32,000 nt of DNA from Candidatus Kuenenia stuttgartensis (GTDB lineage: Bacteria; Planctomycetota; Brocadiia; Brocadiales; Brocadiaceae), in NCBI RefSeq assembly GCF_900232105.1, contig NZ_LT934425.1:3180001-3212000 (forward strand). Reading direction: 5' to 3'. A model generated the notes under the pieces. It saw only the letters and a program-made list of their open reading frames with translations, had not been told where the DNA came from and searched no databases. A program made the translations under genes and the position numbers. Below are positions 15,004 through 32,000 of this stretch, piece after piece (position 1 is the first letter of the stretch; each line of letters starts with the position of its first letter).

Positions 15004-17160
15004 TCAATCCCCTTTTTCCATAGAATATCGTATCTTTGCCCTGACTAATTTTATTTCATCGTAGGAATACTCTTCTCCTAATTTTTCTTTAACAGGGGTT
15101 AACGCCTCCATACCCAGTTCTCCCAGCACCGTGCGGATTCGTTGCTGTTTTGCCGGAGCAACAAATTTATCTATGGAGACATCTTCTCCCGCGATTATAA
15201 GCGTTTCAAGATGAGTGGCGATTGTAGATGTTGCAAGGCCTCTTTTCCCGGCTATTTCCCGAAGCGAAAGATTGTTTTTATAGAGTTCCAGCGTTGTGTA
15301 AACAGTGGGAGATTTCATTTGTTTCCTCAAGGTTGCCTGCCGTCTGGAGTTCGCCTCTTTTGGCGTTATCTGGTGTTGTCTGCAATAATTGCATATTTCT
15401 TTTAAGAAAAGGTCTCCGTATTTTCTTAATTTCAGTTCACCCATACCGCTGATTTTTTTTAAATCAGAAGCTGTTTGTGGATACCGCATCGACATTTCCT
15501 TTAAACTTGTGTCATGGAAAATAACATAAGGAGGCATAGACTCCTGGTCTGCAAGCGTTTTTCTTAGCGTCCTCAAACGTTCAAACAACGCCAGATCATA
15601 ATTCTTATCTTCTCCGGACACGGCCAACGAAGCGGTTTCCTCTGGTTTTACCAAAAGAACCTTCTTCTTGCCTTGCAATACCTCACGGCTCTGGCTGGTC
15701 AGTTTTAAGACGGGGTATCTGTCGCCTTCCTGCGCCAGATACCCCAACTGGATCAATTCACGGGAAAATGTTAGCCATTGGGATTTTGAATATTCCTTTC
15801 CTATGCCAAACGTTGTAAGAGCTGTATGGCTATTTTGCAGTATTTTCTGGTTTTGCGAGCCTAGCAGGACGTCGATAACGTGATGCATGCCAAAAGATTC
15901 ACCCACTCTATAGACACACGACAACAGTTTTTGCGCAGCAACTGTTCCGTCAAATTGTTCCTTTGGGTTAAGACAGGTATCACAATTTTCACAATTGTGC
16001 GTAGTAAATTTTTCTCCGAAATAATCGAGCAATATCTTTCTCCGGCAAACGTTGCCTTCGCAATATGACACGAGCGCCTTTAATTGTTGATATGCCGCCT
16101 GTTTTTCGTTTTCATCCTCCTTTTGATGTATAAAATATTCTATCTTAATCTTATCTGCATAACTGAAGAGAAGGATGCAGTCGCTTTTTAGCCCGTCTCT
16201 GCCGGCGCGTCCTGTTTCCTGATAATATCCTTCAATGCTTTTCGGCAAATCATAGTGAATCACGTAACGTACATTCGGTTTATCGATGCCCATGCCAAAC
16301 GCAATGGTTGCTACAATAATCTCTATGTCTTCACGAATAAAACGCTCCTGATTTTCTGTTCTCATTTCAGCGGACAATCCGGCGTGGTAGGGAAGGGCGC
16401 GATACCCTTCTCCCTGTAAACTCCCTGCCAGGCTTTCAACTGTTTTACGTCCCTGACAATAGATGATGCCCGACTCCTTCTTTCGTTCTTTTAAAACACA
16501 AAGAATCTGGTGGTATGGATTGTCTTTGGGTATGATCTGATAAAAAAGGTTTTTTCTGTTGAAGCTGGCATTAAAGACTTTGTAGTCGGTCAATTTTAAT
16601 TGCGTTACAATATCTTTCTGCACGGAAGGCGTGGCGGTGGCCGTCAATGCCATGAACGGCGTCTTTGGGAATTTCTCCCTCAACATCTTTAATTGGCGGT
16701 ATTCCGGCCTGAAGTCATGTCCCCATTCAGAAATACAATGCGATTCGTCTATTGCGAAAAGGGAAACTTTCAATTCCTGCAGGAACTGAAGGAATTCACG
16801 CATGGCAAGCCTTTCGGGGGCGATATAAAGAATCTTGATTTTACCCTCCAAAAGGTCCCTTTTTCTTGCCGCAACCTCGCGGGCATGCACGGAGCTGTTA
16901 ATGAATGTTGCGGAAATGCCGTTTTCCGTTAATCCATCCACCTGATCTTTCATCAAGGCAATTAAAGGAGATATAACAACCGTTATTCCATCGAAAAGCA
17001 GTGCGGGCAATTGATAACACAAAGACTTGCCGCCCCCTGTAGGCATGAGGACAAAGAGGTCTTTTTGCTCCAGCACCCACCGGATAATATCTTCCTGAAG
17101 CGGATAGAACTTTGAATAGCCAAAATATTTTTGTAACGCCGAATAAATACGGTCTTTCAT
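15004..17160 (-). CDS. recQ: ATP-dependent DNA helicase RecQ (with C-terminal HRDC plus an extra HTH-like domain)
   Basis: MKDRIYSALQKYFGYSKFYPLQEDII start. Motifs PTGGGKSLCYQLPA, DESHCISEWGHDFRPEY and the RQC zinc motif CRRK..C..CD.C. The ORF-track extension to 17322 translates the family-1 repeat, so I place the start at ATG 17158-17160. Confidence 0.9.
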   Translation of the reverse strand: MKDRIYSALQKYFGYSKFYPLQEDIIRWVLEQKDLFVLMPTGGGKSLCYQLPALLFDGITVVISPLIALMKDQVDGLTENGISATFINSSVHAREVAARKRDLLEGKIKILYIAPERLAMREFLQFLQELKVSLFAIDESHCISEWGHDFRPEYRQLKMLREKFPKTPFMALTATATPSVQKDIVTQLKLTDYKVFNASFNRKNLFYQIIPKDNPYHQILCVLKERKKESGIIYCQGRKTVESLAGSLQGEGYRALPYHAGLSAEMRTENQERFIREDIEIIVATIAFGMGIDKPNVRYVIHYDLPKSIEGYYQETGRAGRDGLKSDCILLFSYADKIKIEYFIHQKEDENEKQAAYQQLKALVSYCEGNVCRRKILLDYFGEKFTTHNCENCDTCLNPKEQFDGTVAAQKLLSCVYRVGESFGMHHVIDVLLGSQNQKILQNSHTALTTFGIGKEYSKSQWLTFSRELIQLGYLAQEGDRYPVLKLTSQSREVLQGKKKVLLVKPEETASLAVSGEDKNYDLALFERLRTLRKTLADQESMPPYVIFHDTSLKEMSMRYPQTASDLKKISGMGELKLRKYGDLFLKEICNYCRQHQITPKEANSRRQATLRKQMKSPTVYTTLELYKNNLSLREIAGKRGLATSTIATHLETLIIAGEDVSIDKFVAPAKQQRIRTVLGELGMEALTPVKEKLGEEYSYDEIKLVRAKIRYSMEKGD

Positions 17161-17179
17161 TTTATCAATACATCCTAAA

Positions 17180-17301
17180 CTGGCATAGCCAGAACTAAAC
17201 AAGCACGAGATAAAAAATACGAAATTCGAAGTACGAAATACGAAACAAATTCGAATAACAAAGCATAAAATCCAAAACATACAACAAAAAGAAATTACTG
17301 C
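17180..17301. repeat. Family-1 intergenic element, copy 3 (reverse orientation)
   Basis: The reverse complement of 17180-17223 matches the 44-bp module of copy 1 at 41/44 positions. Tandem TACGAAA motifs at 17215-17255. GCAGTAATTTCTTTTT end shared with copy 2. The module ends 19 nt upstream of the recQ ATG. Confidence 0.6.
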
Positions 17302-17481
17302 TAAGGCACTAATCAATTGCAAGATGAATCTTTATGGCGTTTTCCACCTTCGAGTCCATCACCAAGAGTGTCTTCCCATTCCTTGTATAATTCATAATCT
17401 TCATTAACTGCCTCTTTATATGCAGCCTCTAATTTATTTCGGAGCCTTTTCTTCATGCAATTTCTTTTTCTCTCCAACGCA

Positions 17482-19494
17482 TTATTTATTCGTTTTCTGC
17501 GCAGCTTGAATTTTTTCGATAGTTCTCCGTATTTCCGCTGCTTCATCACCGTCGGGATTCCGCTTCAGAAATTCCTGGAAATATGCTATCGACCTTTGTA
17601 TATCTTTTTTATAAGTGAGATAAACCATGCCGAGGTTTTTATATGCGGTTATATAGTTTGGCTGCAGACGCAAGGTTTCATTATATGCCCTGATAGACTC
17701 CTCAATCATACCGGCATTTGCGTATGCCGTTCCAAGGCAGCTATGCACTTCGGGATGGTCCGGTTCGTACTTCACAGCAAGCCTGAATTCCTCTATTGAG
17801 TCATTCAAAAGTCCTTTCTTGAATAAAGCAAGCCCTAAATTAAAATGGGCGTCATAATAATGCGGTTTTAGCCTGATTGCCTCTTTAAATTTCATTATTC
17901 CTTCGTCGATATTCCCCAAACTAATAAATATATTGCCCATATTATTGTGCGTGAGGGCGGAATCTGGATTTGCCCCGAGAACAAGTAAATATTCCTGCAT
18001 CGCCTCTTGCTGCATGCCTTTTCGCTGATACGCCATACCCAGGTTGTGGCGATATTCAGGGTCTGCTTCCAGCGAAACCGATGTTTGAAATTCATGGAGT
18101 GCTGGATCAATATCTCCTTTCCCGAAATAGATCATTCCAAGATTATTATGCGCCCGTGCACTGTAAGGGGAGTCCTGTACGGTAGTTGACCAAAAGATGA
18201 ACTGATCCCTCCAGCACCTGTTTCTATGCATAGTTGTTACTGAATAGGGGATTACCGGGATTGCTATCAATAAAACAATCATAATGGTTTGGGGAAGGTT
18301 TTTTTGTTTCACCATGGCTTCTTTGCTTCCGGAAAGGAGTGAATACCCTTTTGTTGTTTTCCGACCCGCATCACTTTTTTTGAAAAATAGTAATGCACAG
18401 CCCTTTTCCCATGCGCTGTGTATTGTTAATGCTAAAATTATGCAAAAGCCTACAGAAGGAAGATAAAGATAACGTTCCGCCATTATATTGGCAATAGGAA
18501 GGATATTCATTGCCGGAGTAAGGGTGACGAAAAACCATACCGTAAAGTAAAAGAACGGTTTCGAATAGAAATAAAACCGGCAGGCAATGATTCCCGCAAC
18601 ACATAAAAAAACCATACTACAAAGAAATGCGGGGGCAAGGGGAGTTGTTGTATGGGCGATCATATATTCAGCGTTGAAATGTACTGGGATGAACAATAGT
18701 TTTATGTATGCGGCAACCACCTTTGGCATGGTGAGCATATTAACGAAAAAACTATCTTCCGGATAGGTCAACTGTCCCTCCGCAGGATTATGCAACAGCA
18801 CAAACCTTATAAGAAGATAAAAAATACTTACCGCCAGGAAACCAATATAATAGCGAACGGCATTCTTTTTTATTTGTGCGCTATCCCCCAATATCCAATC
18901 GAAGAGGAAAACCATCAACGGCAAAGTAATTGCCATTTCTTTCGAACATAATGCGAAAAGGTATAAAAAGAGCGATGCCGGATACAGCAGGAGGTATCTA
19001 TGGAAATTTTTGGTTGAATTAATGAATAATAAAAGAGCGCCAAGAAAAAATACAGTAGTAAGGAGGTCTTCCCTATAACTGATTGCGTTTACTGTTTCAG
19101 TCAGGATTGGGTGCATGCTGAAAAACATTCCCGCCATAAATGAAACAGTTTTTTTCCGAATAACGGCAGACGTTATAAAATAAACAAGTATGACGGCAAC
19201 GGCATGGGATAGAAGATTTGTCAGATGATACCCAATGGGATTGAGTTTCCCTATTGAATAATCGATGAAATATGAAATGGTTACAAGAGGACGATACGTT
19301 GCTTCCCCTGAAAGTTTAAAATATTCAGACGTAAATAAATCCCGGAAATTTCCCCAATCCCTGATAAAATAATTATCGGTGACCGTAAATACGTCGTCAT
19401 AGACAAAGTCGTTATTGAGAGAATTGAGGAAGGCAATAAAAGGCAGGACAATGAGTATGGTTAATGGTAAAATTCGTAACATGTTATTGGTCAT
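17482..19494 (-). CDS. Polytopic membrane protein with C-terminal TPR repeats (TMTC/PMT-like GT-C glycosyltransferase candidate)
   Basis: 670 aa. The N-terminal NNDFVYDDVFTVTDNYFIRDW motif resembles the xDD motif of TMTC/PMT-type mannosyltransferases. About 10 TM helices, followed by about 6 TPR units (HNNLGMIY..., HNLGMAYQ..., HFNLGLALF...). Confidence 0.7.
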   Translation of the reverse strand: MTNNMLRILPLTILIVLPFIAFLNSLNNDFVYDDVFTVTDNYFIRDWGNFRDLFTSEYFKLSGEATYRPLVTISYFIDYSIGKLNPIGYHLTNLLSHAVAVILVYFITSAVIRKKTVSFMAGMFFSMHPILTETVNAISYREDLLTTVFFLGALLLFINSTKNFHRYLLLYPASLFLYLFALCSKEMAITLPLMVFLFDWILGDSAQIKKNAVRYYIGFLAVSIFYLLIRFVLLHNPAEGQLTYPEDSFFVNMLTMPKVVAAYIKLLFIPVHFNAEYMIAHTTTPLAPAFLCSMVFLCVAGIIACRFYFYSKPFFYFTVWFFVTLTPAMNILPIANIMAERYLYLPSVGFCIILALTIHSAWEKGCALLFFKKSDAGRKTTKGYSLLSGSKEAMVKQKNLPQTIMIVLLIAIPVIPYSVTTMHRNRCWRDQFIFWSTTVQDSPYSARAHNNLGMIYFGKGDIDPALHEFQTSVSLEADPEYRHNLGMAYQRKGMQQEAMQEYLLVLGANPDSALTHNNMGNIFISLGNIDEGIMKFKEAIRLKPHYYDAHFNLGLALFKKGLLNDSIEEFRLAVKYEPDHPEVHSCLGTAYANAGMIEESIRAYNETLRLQPNYITAYKNLGMVYLTYKKDIQRSIAYFQEFLKRNPDGDEAAEIRRTIEKIQAAQKTNK

Positions 19495-19508
19495 TGGTCA
19501 GTTTGTGA

Positions 19509-19587
19509 TGAATTTCTTAATCTGTATAATCTGTGGTTTCCCTTTTGTATTTCGTGATTTGACCTTGTTTGTTTTTGGTTATGCCAG
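19509..19587. repeat. Family-1 intergenic element, copy 4 (short, degenerate)
   Basis: TTTTGTATTTCGTGATTTGACCTTGTTTGTTTTTGGTTATGCCAG aligns with the 44-bp module of copies 1 and 3. Lies between the divergent TPR-protein and protease genes. Confidence 0.4.
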
Positions 19588-19780
19588 CTTTGGAAATAGG
19601 AGTTTATTTGTTATTCAGATATGATCATTTTTTGTATTGTACACTGAAGTGGTGTTTTTTTTAGTAGAAAAAAATGCAGCTTCTTTGCAATTGTTACAAA
19701 ACCCATGCTTGACAAAGCATCATACAATTATAAATAATTAAACCGTAAAGGAATTTTCATCTACCTTGAAAGGATACGAT

Positions 19781-20887
19781 ATGAACAAGAAATACACAAA
19801 ATTTCTCCCCTACTTTTTTTTAATTATAGCAGGATTATTTTTTTACCACGCGACAGGAAGTTTATCACGCGATAAAGTAGTGTTCCGTCCTGTAACACCA
19901 TCTCCAGGTGAATTTAGCAGCGAGGAGCAGGCTACCATAGACATTTTCAAGATGACCTCTTCTTCTGTGATATATATTACAAACAAACAGGTGCGAAGGG
20001 ATTTGTTCTCACTGGATGTCTTCAAGATTCCGCAGGGTGCCGGTTCCGGTTTTATCTGGGATGAAAACGGTCATATCGTAACTAATTTTCACGTTATCTA
20101 CAATGCGAATGAAATAGATGTGACGTTGAACGATGGTTCTGTGTGGGATGCCCGCCTCGTGGGCGTTGACCCTGACCATGACATTGCGGTGCTTAGGATC
20201 AATGCGCCAAAAACAAAACTGATACCTGTACTCATAGGTACTTCTTCCGATCTGCAGGTGGGCCAGAAAGTACTGGCGCTCGGCAATCCATTCGGTCTGG
20301 ATCTGACCCTTACAACAGGGATTATCAGCGCGCTTGGAAGAACGATTGAGGCGATGACGGGAAGAACCATTTTTGACGTTATTCAGACAGATGCCGCTAT
20401 TAATCCTGGAAATTCAGGAGGCCCCTTGCTGGATTCCTTTGGAAGAGTTATCGGAATGAACACATCAATTATGAGTCCAAGCGGTGCGAGCACAGGAATT
20501 GGATTTGCGGTTCCCATTGATACAATAAACCGTAATGTATCTCAATTAATTGCAAGGGGGAAAGTAGAACGTCCAGGTTTGGGCATTACCCTTGTTCCAA
20601 ATAACATTACAAAACAGCTTGAAATACAAGGGGCATGTATTCTTGAAGTCATTCCAAATGGGGCGGCAGACAAGGCCGGTTTACAGGGAACAAAAAGAAA
20701 CAGGACGGGCAGCCTCCTCATGGGGGATGTAATTATAGAGGTAGAGGGAAACAAGGTGAATAATTCTGAGGATCTCATCAAGGAGTTGTCCCGCTACAAA
20801 GTGGGGGATAGTGTTACATTAAAGGTTTTGCGGGATAAAAATGTCATGGAAAAAAGAATTAAACTGCAACCCATTGATAGTAAATAG
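19781..20887 (+). CDS. HtrA/DegP-family (S1C) serine protease with one PDZ domain
   Basis: Catalytic triad context (TNFHV, DIAVL, GNSGGPL), an N-terminal TM/signal segment and a C-terminal PDZ. ATG 19781 is preferred because AGGA lies 6 nt upstream; the track ORF starts at TTG 19766. Confidence 0.85.
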   Translation: MNKKYTKFLPYFFLIIAGLFFYHATGSLSRDKVVFRPVTPSPGEFSSEEQATIDIFKMTSSSVIYITNKQVRRDLFSLDVFKIPQGAGSGFIWDENGHIVTNFHVIYNANEIDVTLNDGSVWDARLVGVDPDHDIAVLRINAPKTKLIPVLIGTSSDLQVGQKVLALGNPFGLDLTLTTGIISALGRTIEAMTGRTIFDVIQTDAAINPGNSGGPLLDSFGRVIGMNTSIMSPSGASTGIGFAVPIDTINRNVSQLIARGKVERPGLGITLVPNNITKQLEIQGACILEVIPNGAADKAGLQGTKRNRTGSLLMGDVIIEVEGNKVNNSEDLIKELSRYKVGDSVTLKVLRDKNVMEKRIKLQPIDSK

Positions 20888-21078
20888 TACTACAGCGACA
20901 TTTTATTCTTACGTCCTCCACAAAAATCGGCAGAGTATTAACCATGACAGGGTTGTTTCTTTCATTTCCAACATCTGAAATAAAAATGTCGCGGTGGTGA
21001 TAGTTTCTTAATAAAAATATTTTCTCATACGCTCTGTCCATGCGGTATGAGCCAATACCTTATAACCGCCGACTATTT

Positions 21079-21200
21079 ATGTAACACTTTAGTTTTTTGA
21101 AAAAGTAGGGGCGAAGCATTTGCTGCAAATGCTTCGCCCCTAACACTATGCGGCAAACATGGCCATTATTGGCCTTTTTCAAAAAACTAAAGTGTTACAT
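21079..21200. repeat. Family-2 palindromic element, copy D (complete, both termini)
   Basis: Terminal inverted repeats ATGTAACACTTTAGTTTTTTGAAAAA (21079-21104) and TTTTTCAAAAAACTAAAGTGTTACAT (21175-21200). Perfect 18-bp-stem hairpin TAGGGGCGAAGCATTTGC-T-GCAAATGCTTCGCCCCTA (21106-21142). Ends 6 nt from the HD-GYP gene stop. Confidence 0.7.
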
Positions 21201-21205
21201 ATTTA

Positions 21206-22480
21206 TTATTCGAAGTGCAGGAGTATGCATTCTGTTTTAAGGTATTTTTCTCTTGCTTCATCCTGTGCGGCAATACGAGCAGAATTAATTTCATTAAAAT
21301 GCAAGAGTAGTGCTGAAACAATATTGGGATCGAGTTTCGATTCTTCTCCCAATTTTTTAAGCTCTTCGTGTATTGTTTCGCCGGAAAATTTATTCCGGTA
21401 TGGTCTGATTTCTGTGAGGGCGGTAAATACATTGGCAACTGCCAGGATTCGCGCTCCCAACGGGAGAAGATCCTCTTTGACATGGAAAGGATAGCCTGTC
21501 CCTGATAACGTTTCGTGGTGATACGACGCCCACGAAACAATATCCTTGAAAGCCGCGATGCTTTTAAGGATAAGATGCGTATAGAAGGGATGCTTACGAA
21601 TAATGCCAAACTCCTCTTCCGTTAACGGTTCTTCTTTTTCCAACAGCTCTATCGGCACCACAAGCATTCCGATATCGTGTACATAACCGGCAATTTTCAT
21701 CCATTGGCATTCTTGTTTTGAAAAACCGACAAATTGCGCCAATTTTTCAGCCGTAGCCGCAACGCCGGCAGAATGCGTGGCAAAAAAAGCGCTTCTGAAA
21801 TCTACAATTCTTGAAAATACCTTAGAAAAGGAAACAAGGTGCTCCATGTCCAATGAAATAGAAGGCATTTTTACCCTGCCGGACAGAATTACATAGAGCA
21901 GTGACGAAGTGGCTTCAAGCCAGAAATACTCCTTTTCTGCTAATTTCAGAAAGGCATCTACCAGTTCCGGCATGAACATTTTTCCGGATTGTGCCTTTAT
22001 CTTTTCACGAATACTGTCCACCTGCCCGAGTATTTCTTCCTGTTTATTTATTAAAGTAGAAACCCTGTCCGCAATATGTAATATATAACTGCCATATGGC
22101 ACCTTTTTTCCCGATTTCTGTATTTTATTTTTTTTATCCCAGCGGACGTGATGAAATCGTATAAGATTTGCGATGGAACTAAATGGTTTAAATTCGTTAA
22201 GGAAGAGGTATCCTAATTCTTCATGTTCGTGAGGAAATTCGCTTTCAAATTTAAGAAGGTCCATCCTTTCTGCACGGCAATAACATCCAATATCATGTAA
22301 AGCCCCTGCCAACACGAGACCTCTTTTTTCTTCCATGGATAACCCCAGTTCTTCGCTGAGGCTAAAAGCGATATAAGCAACTTGCATGTGATGATTTACC
22401 CATGCGGGATTAACCAAATCAACGGTTTCTGATAAACCCGTAGTTAAATCTAATAAGGATATTTGTGATTCTTTTGCCAT
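21206..22480 (-). CDS. Tandem HD / HD-GYP domain phosphohydrolase (putative c-di-GMP phosphodiesterase)
   Basis: 424 aa. The C-terminal domain has HDIG, HP..TH and HHETLSGTGYP (HD-GYP signature). The N-terminal domain has HDIG and HHVRWD but lacks GYP. Confidence 0.8.
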   Translation of the reverse strand: MAKESQISLLDLTTGLSETVDLVNPAWVNHHMQVAYIAFSLSEELGLSMEEKRGLVLAGALHDIGCYCRAERMDLLKFESEFPHEHEELGYLFLNEFKPFSSIANLIRFHHVRWDKKNKIQKSGKKVPYGSYILHIADRVSTLINKQEEILGQVDSIREKIKAQSGKMFMPELVDAFLKLAEKEYFWLEATSSLLYVILSGRVKMPSISLDMEHLVSFSKVFSRIVDFRSAFFATHSAGVAATAEKLAQFVGFSKQECQWMKIAGYVHDIGMLVVPIELLEKEEPLTEEEFGIIRKHPFYTHLILKSIAAFKDIVSWASYHHETLSGTGYPFHVKEDLLPLGARILAVANVFTALTEIRPYRNKFSGETIHEELKKLGEESKLDPNIVSALLLHFNEINSARIAAQDEAREKYLKTECILLHFE

Positions 22481-22504
22481 GGTTTGAAAAGGGGCAGGAA
22501 GGGA

Positions 22505-24247
22505 TTATTTTTTGTCGGCGATTCTATCGTTAAGGGACTGGATAAATTTTTCTCTATCTACATTATGCATTTTTGCAGCCATATCAATCGTTGCTACTCT
22601 TCCCATCGTATTCCTAATAACAGGATTCGCCATTTGGCTGAATCCATAATCAAGAAATATCTGCAATGTTTCAGGATATTGGTCCACAATATCAAATACC
22701 TTCGTATCCTTGTCGACTACCGTTATTTTTTTAATTTCAGAAGGCTTAGGTTGTTCCTTCGTGTTCATAGTCTTCCACAAATTGTATCCAAAAAAACCTA
22801 TCGCGGCCAGCTCAAACCATCCCGATGTTCCCACAATACCGTAAAAAATAGGTTTTCCTCCGCTTATCCCGACGGACATTTGGGAAAATACCCGGATAAA
22901 ACATCCTGTGTTTAAAAGTATGAAGGTAATATGTGAAAGTTTAATACTGTGCATATTTATGCCGGTAAACGTTGGAACCATTTTTGAAGCATAACCAATC
23001 ATCATCATCGTAATAAAACCAACGGTGACGGCATGATTAAACGAACCATGAAATTGCTTTAATATCTCTGTTTTATTATGCAAAAAAGGCATGGTAATGA
23101 GTATTAGCATGCTGATGATAAGCCATATGTAAGCAGCATGTATCGTTTTTGTATAACTCCTGTCCATTACAACACCATGAAGTTCTTTTGTAGACCTCTC
23201 AAAGACGCGCAAACCGTAAATGAATGAAAAAACGGCGAACGCAATGAAGAATACCACCAATTGTGAAAACCGCAGTGCAATGACACTTTTGCCGGCAAAA
23301 ACGCATGTAATAAAATAAACTGGTATGGATGCGTTAAGCATCCAAAAACTGAGGTTAATCGCCTTTTCACGGACAGGCTTAATGTCAAGAAAAGCATATA
23401 CTGTCCTTATATTGACAGCAAAAATAAACATAAAAACAAAACCAAAGAGGTACAAATGTACGTAGGGGCTAAAAACTGATTTGGGTATCTCCTGAACCGA
23501 TTTATTATATAAATAAAAAACCATCCCCAAGTTCACCAATGAGGAAATCAACAACCACAGTAGTCCTGCCTTGAAAAATTTGTCGAATATGCCGACCTTT
23601 TCCTGACTGGAAGATATCGTACTAAAAAGAATGAAGGAAAACAACAGGACTGCACCAATCTCAAACATCGCGGATGCAGGAAGCAGGAATCTTACAGAAC
23701 TATACGGAACAGGCTGCACGACGGCCCTTAAAACAATGCCGATAATGATGAATCCGAAGCAGACATTTACCAGATTTTTGTGCCGCAGTTCGGTATTTTT
23801 TACCCTCGGTATGATGTATAAAGCAAACCCCATAATAAAAAGTCCTACCCATCCTACTAACTGGGCATAACCATGCGCCTGGATGTGGGCATAGTGCGTT
23901 GCGTTGAAATTCAATTTAATCGCAATATAACTAAGAATAACGGCACCAAATGTTACCCCTACGGTAAGTGTAAATAAAATCGCAGCTTTCGCGAACTTTT
24001 CATATACCTTATCTACCTCTAACAGAGGAAGTTCAACATACTCCCCTCCGCCTTTTTCAATGGCTTCATTTAATTCTCTCACCAACGTGTCATAATCAAC
24101 CTCATGTGCCTTTGCAAAAAAAGCTATTGGCTCATTAGGTCCCCGCACACCGCCGGCAATGACCAGGTTATACTTTTTGAATACTGCAAGTGTTTCCGGA
24201 TGCGCCTCTATAAGGTCTTTAATTACGGTATTTTTATTTATTTCCAT
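22505..24247 (-). CDS. DUF1858 - 12-TM NnrS-like core - DUF1858 membrane protein
   Basis: 580 aa. Both the N-terminus (VIKDLIEAHPETLAVFKKYNL...AKAHEVDYDTLVRELN) and the C-terminus (VFDIVDQYPETLQIFLDYGF...AAKMHNVDREKFIQSLN) match the DUF1858 pattern. About 12 hydrophobic helices carry conserved-looking His residues (HYAHIQAHGY, HLYLFGF, HGSFNHAV), reminiscent of NnrS. The NnrS assignment is tentative. Confidence 0.6.
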   Translation of the reverse strand: MEINKNTVIKDLIEAHPETLAVFKKYNLVIAGGVRGPNEPIAFFAKAHEVDYDTLVRELNEAIEKGGGEYVELPLLEVDKVYEKFAKAAILFTLTVGVTFGAVILSYIAIKLNFNATHYAHIQAHGYAQLVGWVGLFIMGFALYIIPRVKNTELRHKNLVNVCFGFIIIGIVLRAVVQPVPYSSVRFLLPASAMFEIGAVLLFSFILFSTISSSQEKVGIFDKFFKAGLLWLLISSLVNLGMVFYLYNKSVQEIPKSVFSPYVHLYLFGFVFMFIFAVNIRTVYAFLDIKPVREKAINLSFWMLNASIPVYFITCVFAGKSVIALRFSQLVVFFIAFAVFSFIYGLRVFERSTKELHGVVMDRSYTKTIHAAYIWLIISMLILITMPFLHNKTEILKQFHGSFNHAVTVGFITMMMIGYASKMVPTFTGINMHSIKLSHITFILLNTGCFIRVFSQMSVGISGGKPIFYGIVGTSGWFELAAIGFFGYNLWKTMNTKEQPKPSEIKKITVVDKDTKVFDIVDQYPETLQIFLDYGFSQMANPVIRNTMGRVATIDMAAKMHNVDREKFIQSLNDRIADKK

Positions 24248-24700
24248 AAGTGTTAATAAAACAAATTTCTATAAACCTTTCAAGAAAATTAAAAATAAAC
24301 CGTTAATATTATTTATAATACTGCCGTATCTTTTGAAGAAACGGATTGGAAACACTCAGATTTTTCGTGTCGTGCATTAAATCGAAGGGATGGTAATTTT
24401 ATCTGTCATTTCCTGCATGTCAAAAATAGTATCACGATTTTCAGAAGCTCTGGAATTTCCTAAATTTTATTTAAAATCTTTACCTTAATTCTGTATAATG
24501 CCGCCTTTAATTTAACTTCTTAGCGCAACTAATTTGAGATTTGGTTTTTGTCTTTTTGAATATTTTCCGTTTATTGGACGTACTCAAAAACTTACAAAAA
24601 AAGAGGTTTTTACAGATTGATAATATATACTGCTGTAACTTACTGTCTACTATAAGAAATATATTCATTTTAATCTTTAACAGAAGGAGATAAGAGTGTT

Positions 24701-25075
24701 ATGCCAAAAGTATTAATAATTGATGATTCCTCCGTAATGCGCAAAATGATCCAGAGAAACATTCAACAGTCCGGTTTGATGGTTGATTCATTTGTGGAAG
24801 CAGGAGACGGAAAAGAAGCTCTGGCTAAAATTGCCGCAGATAGCAGCATTGACCTGATTCTTTGTGATTGGAACATGCCCAATATGACAGGTATTGAATT
24901 TGTGAAGGCACTCAGGGGCAGTGGAAACCAGACCCCTATTATAATGTGTACTACTGAAGGCAGTGACGCAAAAGTAGTAGAGGCTACAGGCAGTGGTGCT
25001 AATGGCTATATCACAAAACCATTCACCCCTGACCAATTAAAAACCAAATTAGGTGCTTTTTTACAAATTAAATAG
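24701..25075 (+). CDS. cheY: Chemotaxis response regulator CheY
   Basis: 124 aa single REC domain. IIDDS, DLILCDWNMPNMTG, TTEG and YITKPF motifs. AAGGAG lies upstream. Confidence 0.9.
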   Translation: MPKVLIIDDSSVMRKMIQRNIQQSGLMVDSFVEAGDGKEALAKIAADSSIDLILCDWNMPNMTGIEFVKALRGSGNQTPIIMCTTEGSDAKVVEATGSGANGYITKPFTPDQLKTKLGAFLQIK

Positions 25076-25152
25076 AAAAGTACCTTCTTAATAGCTATTT
25101 GCGCCCGGGCAATTTAAAAAAACCGAAAAAGAAATCAAAAGGAGCTTACACA

Positions 25153-25677
25153 ATGGATCTTAAGGGGATCATGGATGGGATTACTTTAGATATTAAGGAA
25201 ACAACGAAAATATTATTTGAAACAATGATTATGCTGGATTTAAACTATGGAGATGCTTCGCTCATTGACGAAACACAGATTAAAACTGATGTTATTGGCA
25301 TGGTAAGCTTTACAGGCCAGTATCACGGGGTAGTCGGTATATTTTGTTCAAAAAAATTTGCGCTAAAAGTAGCCTCCAGCATGTTAATGATGGAACTGGA
25401 GGAATTCAATAACGACGTGAAAGATGCCGTCGGAGAAGTATCTAATATGATCGCCGGAAATATTAAGACCAAAATGTCAGAAAAATATGGCGAAATGCAC
25501 CTTTCTATCCCCATTGTAATAGCGGGTGAAGGCCTTTCCATTACAGCGGTCGGCAACGTGCCTACCGTATCAGACACCGCCTTGTCATGCTTTAGCAAGG
25601 ACCCATGGTTGATGACGTATTTTAGCGCAGAAAAAGAAAAATTTGGCGTAGGTTTGCTGTTGAAAGAGTCAAAATAA
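25153..25677 (+). CDS. cheX: CheY-P phosphatase CheX
   Basis: 174 aa. AVGEVSNMIAGNIK (E-x2-N active-site motif) and overall alignment with Thermotoga/Borrelia CheX as I remember them. The ATG is preceded by AAAAGGAG; the track ORF starts earlier at TTG 25099. Confidence 0.8.
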   Translation: MDLKGIMDGITLDIKETTKILFETMIMLDLNYGDASLIDETQIKTDVIGMVSFTGQYHGVVGIFCSKKFALKVASSMLMMELEEFNNDVKDAVGEVSNMIAGNIKTKMSEKYGEMHLSIPIVIAGEGLSITAVGNVPTVSDTALSCFSKDPWLMTYFSAEKEKFGVGLLLKESK

Positions 25678-25700
25678 TAATTTATTTTCCCTATTATCTT

Positions 25701-26723
25701 ATGGAAAAACCTGCCGATAAATCAGAGAAAAAGGCGCCCGCGTCTCAGTTTGAGAAAACGTGGGTTAGTACATTTCCGCGCGTTTGCGAAGGATGCAGCC
25801 AATTAACAAACAAGCAATTTTTTCTCATTAACCCTGTTTTAAAAATTACCACCATAGGAACTTTTATTAAAAATGCCAATGCAAAGTTTGTGTTATCAAA
25901 AATAATTGTCGAGGATTTTTATGAGGGCGAAATATATTTACTTTTATCTTTAAAACTAGCGATAACAATTGGTAACATTCTCCTGCTTCTCGAAGATGAA
26001 GCAATAAAGGAAAATGCTAATAAGGAAAATTTCGATGCTGATTGCGCGGACGGTTTCAAAGAGTTTTCGAATCAGGTATGCGGTATTTTAGATAATGACC
26101 TACGCCTGAAATTACCCAAACCGATTCACCTGAAATTATTATCGGTAGAGCCAATAAACAAAGAAAATATGACCACCGTATTAAAAGACGACATCCTTAA
26201 CGAAGAATGCCTTTTCCTCTCTACTTCTTTAAGAATAATGGGTTTTGACGATGATCAATTTATTATATGTGTCCCTAAATTGATCGGAGAAGAATTTTTC
26301 GGGGAAATCATTGAGGAAGAAAACAAAGAATATCGGGGAACAATACTTGCAGTGGACGATTCAAACACCGATTTACGAATCATCAGAAAATTACTCGGTA
26401 ATGATTATAAAGTATTGGTGACAGACAATCCGGGCCATGCGCTCTCAACTCTGGGGAAAACCAATATCGATCTGGTATTAATGGACATTTACATGCCAGG
26501 AGTTGACGGAATTACCCTCTGCGAAAGAATTAAAAGAAATGCAATGGTTGAAGATGTGCCTATTATTATCTGCTCCGCCCACCCTACGCAGGAAAATGTA
26601 ATACGCGCCGTAAGGGCAGGCGCTGCTGATTTTATAGTAAAACCGGTAACGAGACAAAAATTAATGGAAAAAATTAACAAACATATGCTTAATAAAAGCT
26701 TAAAAATCCCTGCAAACCGATAG
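25701..26723 (+). CDS. CheX/CheC-like domain fused to a C-terminal receiver (REC) domain
   Basis: 340 aa. The N-terminal ~210 aa parallel the adjacent CheX (LAITIGNILLLLEDE...DGFKEFSNQVCGIL, with E-x2-N). The C-terminal REC has an intact acidic pocket, phospho-Asp, Ser and Lys (AVDDS, LVLMDIYMPGVDG, IICSAH, VKP). Confidence 0.7.
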   Translation: MEKPADKSEKKAPASQFEKTWVSTFPRVCEGCSQLTNKQFFLINPVLKITTIGTFIKNANAKFVLSKIIVEDFYEGEIYLLLSLKLAITIGNILLLLEDEAIKENANKENFDADCADGFKEFSNQVCGILDNDLRLKLPKPIHLKLLSVEPINKENMTTVLKDDILNEECLFLSTSLRIMGFDDDQFIICVPKLIGEEFFGEIIEEENKEYRGTILAVDDSNTDLRIIRKLLGNDYKVLVTDNPGHALSTLGKTNIDLVLMDIYMPGVDGITLCERIKRNAMVEDVPIIICSAHPTQENVIRAVRAGAADFIVKPVTRQKLMEKINKHMLNKSLKIPANR

Positions 26724-26745
26724 TTGTTTTTTTAAGGATAAGAAT

Positions 26746-28530
26746 ATGGAAGATACCTCTTTTTTAATGGATGACCCGGAAATTGTCAAAGAATTCCTGA
26801 CAGAATCGGGGGATCATCTGGAATCGGTAGAATCACAAATCCTCCAATTAGAAGAAAACCCGGACAATACGGATATTATCAACACAATATTCCGCCCTAT
26901 TCACAGCACGAAAGGAAGCGCCGGCTTTTTAGGATTGAAGGATATGGGTACAGTAAGCCATGAACTAGAAACACTTCTTGACGAAGCAAGAAAGGGCAAT
27001 CTGAAAATAACCCCGTTAATCATAGAAATATTGTACGAAGGCGTGGACATACTGAAAAGATTAAGGGGGCTTGTTGCAAAGAAAGTCGAGAAAATAGACG
27101 TTTCGGACGAAATTGTAGATTACGCCCCGGTTATTGTAAAAATAAAAAATGCCCTCGTAGGACAGAAAGCAACGGAAAGCGCACCTTCAAAACCGCAGCA
27201 CTTAGGTGAAATACTTGTAGAAAAAGGGGAAATTACCGAAGATGACCTTGACAAGGCATTAGAGGAACAGGAAAAACTACAGCAAAAAAAAATAGGAGAA
27301 ATCATTGTTGAAAAGGGCATCGTCACAAAAGAAACTATAGACAGCGCCCTCAAAACCTTGCCGGCAACAGCGCCAGTCTCAGAAACGGTCAAGGTCGATA
27401 TACAAAAAATAGACAGCCTTGTAAACCTTGTGGGCGAACTGGTAATCGCCAACGCCCTCATAAAAGACCTTCTGGAAAACACGAACAGCACATCAAATAA
27501 AAATATTTCACACCTGGGAAAGATAGTAAAAGACATACAAGATCAGGTAATGTCAATACGAATGGTTCCCATTAAATCAACCTTCCAGAAAATGTCGCGG
27601 CTCGTCCGTGATGTTTCCAAAAAAGCCGGCAAAAAGGTAAAGCTGGAAGTTTCCGGAGAAGAGACTGAACTAGACAAATCGGTAATTGAATCAATTGGAG
27701 ACCCGCTGGTACATATTCTTAGAAATTCGGTAGATCATGGAATCGAACCGGAAGAAGAACGGATTGCCGCGGGAAAGCCTGCCTTGGGACATGTGTATCT
27801 TGATGCCTTTCACAAAGGGGGGAACATTTTTATTGAAATAAGAGACGACGGCAGGGGTTTACGAAAAGATAAATTACTGAAAAAAGCCATTGAAAAAGGA
27901 ATAATGAGTGAAAACGCCACTCTTACTGAACAACAAATCTTCGGTTTGATTTTTGCCGCAGGATTTTCCACTGCTGAGAAGATAACCGATATATCAGGAC
28001 GCGGCGTAGGGATGGATGTGGTTAAGAAAAATATTGAACGCCTGCGCGGCAAGGTCGAAATCTCTTCAGAAGAAGGCAAAGGCACGAAAATCTCTATCAA
28101 ACTTCCCCTGACAATGGCAATCATTGACGGAATGATCGTCCAGGTAGGGAATCAGAAATATATCGTTCCAATGCTTTCTATAGAAGAATCCATACGCCCG
28201 AAAAAAGATGATATCTCAACGATACAACAGCGCGGTGAAGTAATAAATGTGCGGGGCAATATTTTGCCAATGGTACGGCTGCACCAGTGGTATAATGTAG
28301 AGCCTAAAAAATACGCCCCATGGGAGGCCATTATTCTCATTGTTGAAAGTGAAGGGCAACGATGTGGGATTCTTGTCGATGATTTAATAGGGCAACAACA
28401 AATTGTCATCAAACGCCTTGGAGAACAATTCCGCAATGTCAAAGGGGTTTCCGGCAGTGCCATACTTGGGGACGGAAGGGTAGGGCTTATATTGGATGTC
28501 GGCGGCATTATGAATCTTGCTCTTAACTAA
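26746..28530 (+). CDS. cheA: Chemotaxis histidine kinase CheA (P1-[MshEN-like insert]-P3-P4-P5)
   Basis: 594 aa. Hpt motif HSTKGSAGFLG, dimerisation VKVDIQKIDSLVNLVGELV, HATPase N/G boxes (HILRNSVDHGIE, DDGRGL, GRGVGMDVV) and a C-terminal CheW-like domain. Confidence 0.9.
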   Translation: MEDTSFLMDDPEIVKEFLTESGDHLESVESQILQLEENPDNTDIINTIFRPIHSTKGSAGFLGLKDMGTVSHELETLLDEARKGNLKITPLIIEILYEGVDILKRLRGLVAKKVEKIDVSDEIVDYAPVIVKIKNALVGQKATESAPSKPQHLGEILVEKGEITEDDLDKALEEQEKLQQKKIGEIIVEKGIVTKETIDSALKTLPATAPVSETVKVDIQKIDSLVNLVGELVIANALIKDLLENTNSTSNKNISHLGKIVKDIQDQVMSIRMVPIKSTFQKMSRLVRDVSKKAGKKVKLEVSGEETELDKSVIESIGDPLVHILRNSVDHGIEPEEERIAAGKPALGHVYLDAFHKGGNIFIEIRDDGRGLRKDKLLKKAIEKGIMSENATLTEQQIFGLIFAAGFSTAEKITDISGRGVGMDVVKKNIERLRGKVEISSEEGKGTKISIKLPLTMAIIDGMIVQVGNQKYIVPMLSIEESIRPKKDDISTIQQRGEVINVRGNILPMVRLHQWYNVEPKKYAPWEAIILIVESEGQRCGILVDDLIGQQQIVIKRLGEQFRNVKGVSGSAILGDGRVGLILDVGGIMNLALN

Positions 28531-28572
28531 TATACAAAAACCAAACGTTTTACTTTTTATAGGAGGAGAATT

Positions 28573-29085
28573 ATGGAAGGTGTTCTTAGTCAGCAAAAAC
28601 CTGCCGAAATTTCCAGTCTGGCTTCTCATGAAGGAAAATATTTAACTTTTGTTCTGGGCGATGAAGAATATGGTATCGAGATTTTAAAAGTAAGGGAAAT
28701 CATTGGCGTCATGGCAATAACGCCTGTGCCTCAATCGCCAAATTATATTAAGGGCGTAATTAATTTAAGGGGAAAGGTAATTCCCGTAGTTGATTTAAGG
28801 TTAAAGTTCGGGTTTCCGGAAAAGGAACACACGAAAGAAACCTGCATTGTTGTGGTGGAAGTAAACAATACCCTTACGGGCGTCATTGTAGACACAGTAT
28901 CGGAAGTCATTGATATTGCCACAGAAGACATGGAACCTTCTCCGCACTTTGGGCAGGACATAGATACCGATGTTTTTTTAGGCATTGCACAGATAAAAAA
29001 TAAGGTCAAAATACTACTCGATATTGACAAGATATTACGCCAGGAAGAAGTCTGCATGGCGAGCAATTTTACAGAAATATGTTAA
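28573..29085 (+). CDS. cheW: Chemotaxis coupling protein CheW
   Basis: 170 aa. [21 protein letters not shown]...[14 protein letters not shown] is the typical CheW domain. Strong AGGAGG RBS. Confidence 0.9.
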
Positions 29086-29120
29086 ACATAATAAAAATTT
29101 TTCAAAAGAAAGGGATTATA

Positions 29121-30833
29121 ATGTTCGGCAAAATGACGATAATGACAAGGCTCATCGTGACAATAGTTATCTCAATCGCGATAGGATCCGGTATTTTATC
29201 GGTGATTGTCATGAAGAGGGAAAAGGCGCAAATGCTGGAGGAAGTAAAAAAGGAGGCGCGTATGGCGGCGAATCAGCTTATGTCTGTCCGGCAGGTGATT
29301 GCGACAAAACAGCAGGCCATAAACAATGATTCCAAAGGCAACTTCGAATTCAAAGGGGTAATCCCCGCAGTGGTTGGTCGTGAAGTGGCAGAGCACTTCA
29401 GCCAGACTACCATATACAAAATGAAGCAAACAAGCCTGCAATACAGAAATCCATCGAATAAACCCGATGCGTGGGAAACCAGACAGTTAGAACGCTTTGC
29501 CGCAAATCCTGATTTAAAAGAGATTTCAGAAATAACCATCGAAGACTGGAACCTGGGAGCGGCGTCGCAAATATTCCGCCTTATGGTACCACTAAAAATT
29601 ACAGAAGCCTGCCTTGTATGTCATGGATATCCGGAGACAAGCCCTACGGGAGATGGCAAAGACATATCGGGAAGGCAAATGGAAGGGTACAAACTTGGAG
29701 AAATCAGGGGCGGAATAAGCGTGGTGGCGCCTATGGACAGTATAAATGCGGCAATTGCGGCAAACAGAAATTTCAGCATTCTGGGAAACGGGATTTTTGT
29801 CCTTCTTATTAGTGGTGTGGTATTCTTCGTTACCAAGGGGGTTGTATCTTTATTGAAAAGGACGGTTAATCACCTGAATGCGGGAGCGGAAGAAGTGGCT
29901 GCGGCGTCATCGCAAATATCTTCTTCAAGCCAGTCGCTTGCCGATGGGGCATCGCAGCAGGCAGCTTCCGTGGAGGAGACTTCCGCTTCAATAGAAGAAA
30001 TGTCTTCGATGACGGCAAAGAATGCAGATAATGCAGAAGAGGCAAGCCATTTGACGGTCAAGGCAAAATCTTCGGCGGAGGAAGGCCACGAGACGATGAA
30101 ATCATTGCAGACAATTATGCGTGAATTGCATGGAGGAAATAATCAAATTCTTGCAATTATCAAGTCGATTGACGAAATAGCGTTCCAGACAAACCTTTTA
30201 GCGCTGAATGCCGCAGTAGAGGCCGCAAGGGCCGGTGAACACGGGAAGGGATTTGCCGTGGTTGCGGACGAGGTTCGCAATTTAGCCCAAAGGTGCGCAA
30301 CGGCGTCAAAAGAAACGGCAGACCTGATCAATGCGCGTGTACAGAGCAATGACAACGCCTTAAAGATTACCGAGGTGTTTGCAGAAAAGCTGAAGGAAAT
30401 AGCAACGGATACGAAGAAGGTTGCAGATTTGATGGGAGAGATCTCAGCGGCTTCAAGGGAACAATCGGAAGGGGTAGGCCAGATAGGAAAAGCTATGACG
30501 TCCATAGATAACGTTACCCAACAAAATGCAGCCAATGCAGAACAAATGGCATCCGCCAGCGAAGAACTATCTTCCCAGTCGGTGAATTTAAGAGAAGTCG
30601 TGCTCGAACTCGCAGCACAGGTCGGCGGGATACGGGAGGAGGCTATGGAACCGGAGGTTAAGAAAAAAACATCCTTGAAAAAAGAAATCACTTATCACAG
30701 AAGACCTGCCCTAGAGGCTTACAAGGCTGGAGGGAGCAAAGGCCGCAAACATGTTCGCAAAAATGATGAGGGGGAATCAGGGAAAAAACCTGAAGATATA
30801 ATACCTATGGATGGTGAGTTCAGTGATTTCTGA
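29121..30833 (+). CDS. Methyl-accepting chemotaxis protein with periplasmic c-haem DUF3365 (Tll0287-like) sensor domain
   Basis: The segment between TM1 and TM2 contains [13 protein letters not shown]...[10 protein letters not shown]...[13 protein letters not shown] (DUF3365 pattern with CXXCH). The cytoplasmic MCP signalling hairpin is [36 protein letters not shown]. The ORF is open from ATG 29079, which overlaps cheW by 7 nt. I prefer ATG 29121 because GAAAGGGA lies upstream. Confidence 0.85.
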
Positions 30834-30939
30834 TTGTGCAGTAAAATGGATATAATCTTCATATTTCGGAAAGGAAAATTTTTTATTGTATGCTTCGCGC
30901 AGAGACGTTATATAAACCCGTTGGAAATTTTCGTATAAC

Positions 30940-31422
30940 ATGAACGACGCCCCTAATATCTACACCGTTGGCGTTGGAGATGCAAAAATAGCACGGGCTC
31001 CTAACCAATTAAAGACATTGCTCGGTTCATGCATCGGAATAGCATTGTACGACCCCATAGTAAAAGTAGGGGGCATCCTTCATATCATGCTGCCCAAAAA
31101 AATAGGGAATGATCAAAAATTAACGAAATATGCTGACCCGGGATTGCCTTTTTTTATCGGACAAATCATCAAAAACGGCGGAGCGTCAAAAAACACCCTC
31201 CTTGCAAAAATATTTGGCGGCGCAAAGATGTTCGAAACCGCCGGGAAGCTCATTAATATTGGCGAAAAAAATGAACATGAAGTGCGCAGGATATTAAAAG
31301 AAGAAGGTATCAAAATTGTAGCGGCAAAAACGGGTGGAACAAAGGGATACAATATAGCGCTTGATACAACCACCGGCAATGTGGAATGCCGCATATTCGG
31401 AGAAGCTGTCTGTATTTATTAA
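30940..31422 (+). CDS. cheD: Chemoreceptor glutamine deamidase CheD
   Basis: 160 aa. LGSCIGIALYDP...GGILHIMLP...GGAKMF...IG.KN motif series typical of CheD. Confidence 0.85.
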   Translation: MNDAPNIYTVGVGDAKIARAPNQLKTLLGSCIGIALYDPIVKVGGILHIMLPKKIGNDQKLTKYADPGLPFFIGQIIKNGGASKNTLLAKIFGGAKMFETAGKLINIGEKNEHEVRRILKEEGIKIVAAKTGGTKGYNIALDTTTGNVECRIFGEAVCIY

Positions 31423-31484
31423 GTATATTAATTTTATTATTTTATTTGCGAAAAGATAGCATTTATCAAAAACAAAGGTAAAAA

Positions 31485-32000
31485 ATGGTTATTTCACCGG
31501 AACGCTTACGGATGTTGGAGGTAATAATGAAGCTTTCTATCGACAATGCTTCAAGGGCCCTTTCCAAGACATTAAGGACCGGTGCAAAAATCACTCTCTC
31601 TAAAATCTACATGGCAGATTTTAACGAAGCCACTGAGAAAATGAATACTGACACGAGGGAAATGACCGGCATTATTGTCAATTTTAAAGGCAACTTCGGC
31701 TGTAAAATGCTGTTTATGCTGCCTCTTGAAGGTTCTACAATACTGACGGACTATTATCTCCGTCTACCGGTGGGTACAACAAAAGAGTTTAACACTGATA
31801 CCGAAAGCGTCTCTCAGGAATTGGGGAATATTCTTGCAAGCCATATCAGCAACACGCTGGTTTCAGACTTCGACGCTACATTATTGCCGGAACCGCCGCA
31901 AGTGCATAACGATTATGCGGGAATAATATTTTCAAGTCTTTTGTTGGAACAAGGGATCTATAGCGATCAATTGCTACTTGTTGAAACAATTTTTGAAATC
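31485..32000 (+). CDS. cheC: CheC-like CheY-P phosphatase (3' end outside window)
   Basis: My own translation from ATG 31485 is open to the window edge (172 codons; this ORF is absent from the ORF track). It contains SIDNASRALSKTL and SQELGNILASHISN (E-x2-N), as in the CheC/FliY family. Its position after cheD fits the known CheC-CheD pairing. Confidence 0.65.
   Translation, partial: MVISPERLRMLEVIMKLSIDNASRALSKTLRTGAKITLSKIYMADFNEATEKMNTDTREMTGIIVNFKGNFGCKMLFMLPLEGSTILTDYYLRLPVGTTKEFNTDTESVSQELGNILASHISNTLVSDFDATLLPEPPQVHNDYAGIIFSSLLLEQGIYSDQLLLVETIFEI

Follow-up and report, generated by a model that had tools for sequence, protein, structure and literature searches.

What does it mean that, in the anammox bacterium Candidatus Kuenenia stuttgartensis, genes for an NnrS-like membrane protein and an HD-GYP protein stand back-to-back with an operon for a chemotaxis system whose receptor carries a c-type haem domain? 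Both units lie in the window analysed here, a 32,000-nucleotide stretch of contig NZ_LT934425.1 (assembly GCF_900232105.1, positions 3,180,001 to 3,212,000). A sequence-only reading of this DNA had joined them into one circuit, in which the NnrS-like protein senses nitric oxide (NO) or iron stress, the co-transcribed HD-GYP enzyme lowers cyclic di-GMP (c-di-GMP), the kinase CheA reads that level, and the intergenic region shared by the two units co-regulates them. Our analysis points instead to two independent units, not one circuit, that were joined by rearrangement in one anammox genus, and we give this reading a probability of about 0.75. Four kinds of result had been named as telling against functional coupling of the divergent units (a neighbourhood that is not conserved, separate regulation, an inactive HD-GYP protein and a CheA that does not bind c-di-GMP), and the evidence on the neighbourhood, on the response to NO and on the HD-GYP residues now goes against it.

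We searched 89 genomes of the order with the NnrS-like, CheA and tandem HD proteins; the counts are over related genomes, which are not independent of one another. The NnrS-like protein was matched in 87 of the 89, which makes it a core anammox gene, CheA in 59 (E 1e-30) and the tandem HD protein in 20 (E 1e-40). Distances were taken from the best orthologue rows only (80 NnrS-like, 48 core cheA, and the HD rows minus G001), the core cheA set omitting weaker CheA classes and two genomes of family f2. The NnrS-like gene and core cheA are both present in 46 genomes. They share a contig in 11, where they are adjacent in 2 (G000 and G043) and separated by 54 kb to 2.0 Mb in 9; the other 35, with the genes on different contigs, were judged by flanking genes. 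The NnrS-like gene of G045 is also adjacent, via cheY-cheX, and the G044 contig stops 227 bases 5' of its NnrS-like gene, so the layout there cannot be read. At the 30 best NnrS-like loci, flanks of up to 1.5 kb contain hsp20 (22 loci), murB (19), cheY (3) and the HD-GYP gene (2), and three more distant loci have yet other neighbours.

The neighbourhood on which the circuit had been built is not kept beyond the genus: the NnrS-like gene faces cheY in 3 genomes only, all of one genus, the HD-GYP gene adjoins the NnrS-like gene in 2 of the 17 genomes having both, and all three parts stand together in 2 of 89. In G043, G044 and G050 the HD-GYP gene occupies three unrelated contexts. The units also part company in their distribution. 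No core cheA was found with this query in 34 of the 80 genomes with an NnrS-like orthologue, two of them, G041 and G042, being 99% complete; in family f3 the NnrS-like gene was matched in 14 of 14 genomes and cheA in 0 of 14. FliM accompanies core cheA in 46 of 48 genomes. Since the adjacency is confined to one genus and other contexts are found elsewhere, the layout points to a genus-level rearrangement that brought two units together.

Published expression data, in which K. stuttgartiensis genes were matched to those of the window by gene order alone (recQ, a TPR gene, htrA, two hypothetical genes, cheY, two hypothetical genes, cheA, cheW, mcp, a hypothetical gene and cheC), also separate the two units. 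The expected joint response to NO is not seen in the available part of a study of growth on NO and ammonium (PMC6423088): seven che genes went down 3.2- to 8.7-fold (mcp 8.7, cheY 6.4, cheX 6.2, cheC 4.8, the cheX-REC fusion 4.7, cheW 4.0 and cheA 3.2), and neither left-hand gene changed two-fold, the HD-GYP and NnrS-like genes being in neither the up nor the down list, which reach about two-fold. In the accessible data of PMC7438415, which compare ammonium with nitrite limitation, no significant change was seen for any of these genes; all were expressed, and mcp was the highest of the region at 270/323 reads per kilobase per million (RPKM).

The third line of evidence concerns the HD-[HD-GYP] tandem protein (424 residues, 21206-22480, minus strand), whose C-terminal domain is degenerate by profile match and alignment. 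The metal-ligand set of that domain, H...HD...H...HH...D, is incomplete: the terminal Asp is Asn350, as in all four same-genus copies and 6 of 22 aligned tandem HD homologues (16 keep Asp), and the Lys of HDxxK is Met272, again Met in four of four same-genus copies. It has been proposed that the Asp activates the hydroxide and the Lys donates a proton (PMC3188283). Bd1817 shares this Asn and has no activity on c-di-GMP (PMC8177086), but its GYP loop is degraded as well, whereas the loop is intact here, following the HHE motif with Ser in place of the consensus Asp, and RxxR is kept. The protein has two HD_5 stretches, and the metal ligands of its extra N-terminal HD domain are complete. In VCA0681 and SO3491, active enzymes with the same tandem architecture that differ from this protein in the terminal Asp and HDxxK Lys lost here, mutation of the N-terminal HD ligands left activity unaffected (PMC13492106), so the intact N-terminal domain is unlikely to compensate. 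To judge from its residues, the protein is probably a pseudo-phosphodiesterase and not an active c-di-GMP phosphodiesterase. It is therefore a poor candidate for the role of setting c-di-GMP levels once assigned to it, because residues linked to catalysis are lost, the inactive Bd1817 shares the Asn, and many other candidates are encoded elsewhere in the genome (11 other open reading frames with an HD-GYP-type motif, 8 of them with HDIGK, and 21 GGDEF matches). The gene is under purifying selection, with a ratio of nonsynonymous to synonymous substitution rates (dN/dS) of 0.08-0.14.

If the units are separate, what would each of them be? The left unit would be built around the NnrS-like membrane gene, a core gene that looks leaderless and would be driven by a promoter of its own. 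Behind this gene, in two sister species, an HD-[HD-GYP] gene of mobile context would have landed at a distance of 24 nucleotides and is probably read through with it; the HD-GYP protein most likely would not hydrolyse c-di-GMP and may be a binding or scaffold protein. The coordinates, strand and spacing first given for the two genes hold: the NnrS-like gene runs from 24247 to 22505 (580 residues) and the HD-GYP gene from 22480 to 21206 (424 residues), on the minus strand and 24 nucleotides apart. In the NnrS-like protein (22505-24247), profiles and predicted structure agree on a 12-helix membrane domain between two DUF1858 domains. The match to Pfam NnrS (PF05940) is weak and partial (39.5 against a cut-off of 28), and a weak COX1 match was also found. 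The model (predicted local distance difference test, pLDDT, 85.8; 12 membrane helices) matches cbb3 oxidase and NO reductase subunit I in fold. The protein is thus like NnrS in profile match and helix number and unlike it in the two flanking DUF1858 domains. Four membrane-domain His residues are invariant among 43 orthologues and only H125 and H405, on helices 2 and 10, across 134 family members; in an alignment H125 falls on the helix-II His of cbb3, and haem-copper oxidases carry their low-spin haem at helices 2 and 10. Subunit I of haem-copper oxidases and NO reductases has six conserved His ligands, and despite the likeness in fold only two membrane His are family-wide here; a role as an NO reductase or oxidase subunit was rejected, the His ligand set being incomplete. 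Where the wider family conserves a Cys in its N-terminal DUF1858, this protein has Ala. Nearly every anammox genome carries two DUF1858-NnrS-like-DUF1858 paralogues, about 33% identical, and the second one here lies at L143:2495-4249.

The proposed tie of this protein to NO comes from family labels only: nnrS belongs to proteobacterial NO regulons and NnrS is labelled as haem- and copper-binding (PMC1274295, in the part available), and the gene does not appear as induced in the available lists from NO-grown cells. No sign of an NO regulon was seen for the gene here, where regulator sites were not systematically sought, and a literature search that covered few subscription papers returned nothing on an anammox DUF1858/NnrS protein. 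Most likely the NnrS-like protein would be a haem-binding housekeeping protein or one for metal-centre maintenance in anammox cells. Abutting its start codon is a promoter-like element (24248-24300, minus strand), with TTGAAA at 24283-24278 and no Shine-Dalgarno sequence. The element is found 36-39 bases before the start in 27 of 30 loci, whatever stands upstream, and suggests a leaderless transcript across the family. In G043 (L083/L084) and G044 (L085), a phosphotransferase system (PTS) IIA-like gene and then a flagellin-fliD-fliS cluster lie 3' of the NnrS-like gene, the names being given by sequence similarity; in the present genome the flagellin cluster is ~70 kb off, and what matches the PTS IIA-like gene is a short open reading frame beside a transposase-like gene.

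The divergent intergenic region (24248-24700) is 453 bp long and AT-rich, as first described, with 27.8% G+C against 41% genome-wide. Within the genus its length ranges from 300 bp in G043 to about 650 bp in G045, and it is best conserved at its gene-proximal ends. A promoter scan of 20800-25200 gave 10 sites against 14.2 expected, with no enrichment, and no common motif was evident by eye 5' of cheY at 13 loci, on which no formal motif search was run. Four RNA-labelled runs over 17000-32000 consisted of flat-depth contigs that span intergenic DNA and carry no information about co-transcription or where transcripts start. Downstream of the HD-GYP gene, a terminator-like hairpin of 17 pairs with a T-run (21106-21142, minus strand) forms part of a repeated element. 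In public contigs, hairpin-bearing repeats at 21080-21142 and about 17180-17310 coincide with spikes in depth and numerous loose ends, and are likely to be genome-wide short repeats serving as terminators.

The right unit is the 11-gene flagellar chemotaxis operon of anammox bacteria. On the plus strand and by profile match, it comprises cheY1 (24701-25075), cheX (25153-25677), a CheX-like domain fused to REC (25701-26723; the REC match is strong and the CheX match under cut-off), cheA (26746-28530; Hpt, dimerisation, ATPase and CheW domains, with no match to a P2 domain), cheW (28573-29085), the gene for a methyl-accepting chemotaxis protein (MCP; mcp, 29121-30833), cheD (30940-31422) and cheC (31485-32000), which extends past the window end and is followed there by cheY2, cheR and cheB. 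The starts of cheX, placed from its homologues, and of mcp are probably, as corrected here, 25153 and 29121. Pfam and NCBIfam otherwise bear out the domains assigned on both sides of the intergenic region: two DUF1858, two HD_5, REC, CheX, CheX-like with REC, and CheA, and likewise CheW, Tll0287-like with MCPsignal, CheD and CheC. Close homologues that carry names come from Candidatus Kuenenia, Brocadia and Scalindua, which marks the host as an anammox bacterium.

The receptor encoded by mcp has a membrane helix, a sensor domain, a second membrane helix and a signalling domain, with no HAMP match. The sensor (29226-29732) matches PF11845 (Tll0287-like) at 119.6 bits against 24.1, sits between helices predicted by hydropathy at residues 12-30 and 220-238, and has its CxxCH at residues 164-168 (29610-29624). 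The description of a single MCP with an extracytoplasmic c-haem domain is supported by the profile, the CxxCH motif and the two flanking predicted helices; no other gene in the genome matches MCPsignal over cut-off, against 7-14 matches in three sister genomes. Its C-terminus (30798-30833), acidic and Phe-terminated, resembles CheR-tethering pentapeptides. The sensor model is of moderate quality (pLDDT 70.6), with best fold matches to 5b82 (Tll0287, E 4e-8) and 3b42 (GSU0935, E 8e-4); in a sequence search against solved structures only Tll0287 was significant, 20 other matches having E of 0.27 or worse. Among the family's other 43 genomes, 28 have an orthologue, and in family f4 weaker versions occur in 10 of 28. 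Three f4 che clusters that were examined each encode a PF11845 protein, an MCP in two of them, and the che operon of G050 has no cheW or mcp inside.

What might such a receptor sense? In a 2026 preprint this family was renamed sCache_heme (PMC12889525). Within it, a signalling-type member from P. azotoformans that has no axial Cys binds NO tightly and does not bind O2, and the behaviour of a redox protein is described for a stand-alone Cys/His member, according to the available text of the preprint. MCP sensors of Geobacter bind NO and CO, and their Met ligand switches with redox state (PMC8396549). CxxCH is present in all 35 aligned anammox sensors, as are invariant Met residues, and the Cys of Tll0287 is missing at the aligned position in 35 of 35, the pairwise alignment to Tll0287 being weak. 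The sensor is fused to a signalling module and has no axial Cys, as in the signalling-type (NO-sensor) cluster of sCache_heme. It thus resembles Geobacter GSU0582 and GSU0935 and Desulfovibrio DcrA (PMC12889525, PMC8396549) in being an extracytoplasmic Cache-type domain with CxxCH fused to an MCP module, and the NO-binding P. azotoformans protein in being without the Cys of stand-alone Tll0287. It differs from solved sCache_heme members in being only about 13-20% identical to them, in having no HAMP match and in being the sole receptor of its genome, and in belonging to an organism with NO as a central catabolic intermediate. By analogy with these proteins, it is a good candidate for an NO or redox sensor. 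Our search of the literature, which covered few subscription papers, found nothing on this receptor, or on any chemoreceptor, in anammox bacteria, and a term search of the available part of a second sCache_heme preprint (10.64898/2026.05.25.727664) gave no mention of anammox.

Related sensors are widespread. PF11845 matches occur in 85 of the 89 genomes, many of them in family f4, and two histidine kinases of the present genome carry the same sCache_heme sensor (L137:4966-7419 and L138:3606-6797). In genus g3 (L091:4861-5265, L090, L095) the che operon contains a stand-alone hemerythrin gene and a dCache MCP, a possible O2 or NO input.

The second candidate input lies in CheA. Residues 153-203 score 55.3 bits with NF053729, the profile of an MshE-related c-di-GMP motif for which the cut-off is 38, and the alignment resolves two 24-residue MshEN-type motifs over residues 152-205 (152-175 and 182-205; 27199-27360), with matches to PilF, PilB and MshE. 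Among 35 aligned CheA rows, of which two are duplicates, 34 have the tandem motifs, and the one without them is a fragment. MshEN domains in CheA were already catalogued by Wang et al. in 2016 (PMC5013675). Here the motifs start with His or Lys and not Arg, and motif I never begins with Arg in the alignment; PilF GSPII-B binds at 6 nM without the Arg (PMC11731258), so its absence does not exclude c-di-GMP binding. The final Gln of motif II, which most other CheAs keep, is Leu in three CheAs of this genus. A single change of Gln to Glu causes a 77-158-fold loss without abolishing binding (PMC11731258), and because the last Gln is replaced by Leu, c-di-GMP binding by CheA of this genus may be weaker than in relatives that keep it. 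The insert is thus like the MshEN/GSPII domains of V. cholerae MshE and T. thermophilus PilF (PMC5013675, PMC11731258) at its Gly and hydrophobic positions, and unlike them in having His/Lys for Arg, a 6-residue spacer, the second Gln lost and no evident C-terminal subdomain. In the literature covered we found no binding test on any CheA that bears MshEN. The c-di-GMP-receptor-like insert proposed for CheA is accordingly an MshEN-type motif that is conserved across the order and has lost one Gln here. Three elements had been read as signs of sensing at this locus; two stand, the receptor and the CheA insert, both inside the che operon, and the link of NnrS and DUF1858 to NO has family labels only behind it. 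A separate gene elsewhere in the genome (L139:5715-7019) encodes a CheW-CheX fusion highly similar to the cheW and cheX of the operon.

How probable are the other explanations? For the single circuit speak the 24-nucleotide gap and the similar expression of the HD-GYP and NnrS-like genes (108/183 and 124/200 RPKM; PMC7438415), a layout shared with G045 and, minus the HD-GYP gene, with G043, the reality of the CheA motif and the place of nnrS in proteobacterial NO regulons. Yet just 2 of 89 genomes have its three parts together, the HD-GYP domain is degenerate, the two units behave oppositely in NO-grown cells, and the NnrS-like gene is kept in lineages in which no cheA was found. The circuit is largely refuted on conservation grounds, and we consider it very improbable. 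One alternative is a recent local co-option, in which the inactive HD-GYP protein was recruited to motility control as a c-di-GMP receptor or adaptor, with partial co-regulation. The low dN/dS of the HD-GYP gene despite its lost residues, the retention of GYP and RxxR, the complete N-terminal HD ligands and the flagellin cluster that closely follows the NnrS-like gene in G043 and G044 would fit such a recruitment; the unrelated contexts of the HD-GYP gene in G043, G044 and G050 and the lack of a co-response to NO would not, and it is unlikely. Several observations nevertheless weigh against two independent units. The similar expression of the two left-hand genes fits read-through, and the back-to-back layout is kept in all three same-genus genomes in which it can be read (G044 cannot), which leaves room for co-regulation at the level of the genus. 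In the available lists of the NO study cheD, cheY2 and cheR are absent from the down list too, and absence from a list may reflect filtering. Moreover, each condition of that transcriptome was a single reactor, and 252 genes fell more than five-fold (PMC6423088), so the che response is possibly indirect. As for the receptor, its invariant Met could give redox switching of the Geobacter type instead of selectivity for NO. A last objection is that fliM, flhA and their neighbours are in pieces in this genome.

That objection leads to a further alternative, in which the che operon is a non-motility or decaying system without motor output, most receptors and the flagellar switch and export genes having been lost. 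The single MCP against 7-14 MCPsignal matches in three sister genomes, the broken flagellar genes, the loss of the MshEN Gln in the genus and reports that flagella are rarely seen in anammox bacteria would agree with decay. However, the region with fliA, flhA, flhB, fliP and fliM (L184; G000:C1 about 615000-627000) has 135 indels relative to G045, all in one sharply bounded block of 11-12 kb, with none in the flanks, and 102 of them are one-base deletions. An independent contig, L191 (20 mismatches in 3.2 kb), shows no gap against G045 over 1977 bases and 29 gap openings against G000. Because the indels lie in one bounded block and are absent from L191, the broken block is probably an assembly error in an unpolished segment; real decay of the flagellar genes was judged unlikely, L191 being one independent contig. 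All three sister genomes have intact FlhA and FliM, as do nearly all the other flagellated genomes of the order, and purifying selection acts on those che genes that were tested (dN/dS 0.02-0.07). A decayed chemotaxis system is, on this evidence, very unlikely.

Returning to two independent units, we can sketch how the chemotaxis operon may work. NO or the haem redox state would alter c-haem ligation in the extracytoplasmic sCache_heme domain; the receptor would modulate CheA via CheW, and phosphorylated CheY would act on the flagellar switch. CheX and CheC would strip phosphate, CheR, CheB and CheD would adapt the receptor, and c-di-GMP from enzymes encoded elsewhere may tune CheA via the MshEN-type insert. 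Here we infer the ligand of the receptor, c-di-GMP binding by CheA, the inactivity of the HD-GYP protein and motility. A more speculative possibility, which we regard as doubtful though worth stating, is a dedicated anammox NO-taxis: the haem receptor would sense the organism's own diffusible intermediate and cells would steer to nitrite-reducing neighbours or active aggregates, c-di-GMP acting on CheA would stop taxis upon settling in a granule, and an excess of NO would lower expression of the operon. The sensor may face the anammoxosome instead of the periplasm, and the dead HD-GYP protein may be a second c-di-GMP receptor.

Elsewhere in the window, transposase-like open reading frames at 3635-4891 and 5825-7708 are absent from the syntenic G045 contig, which fits frequent rearrangement. 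A small secreted haem c protein is encoded at 410-919, and its sequence resembles those of the cytochrome P460/c'-beta group.

The receptor and the CheA insert are of known kinds and are conserved across anammox genera, and the operon joins two known types of input, both of them candidates. According to published reports, no cultured anammox bacterium has yet been shown to perform chemotaxis, which makes this receptor a concrete object for a test. With one intact receptor in this genome, the question of what feeds anammox chemotaxis reduces to one soluble, expressible, NO-titratable haem domain, and annotation of this chemotaxis pathway should leave out the NnrS-like and HD-GYP genes. If NO is indeed what the receptor senses, the central intermediate of anammox metabolism would be tied to motility and granule formation, both of them important in wastewater reactors and the nitrogen cycle.

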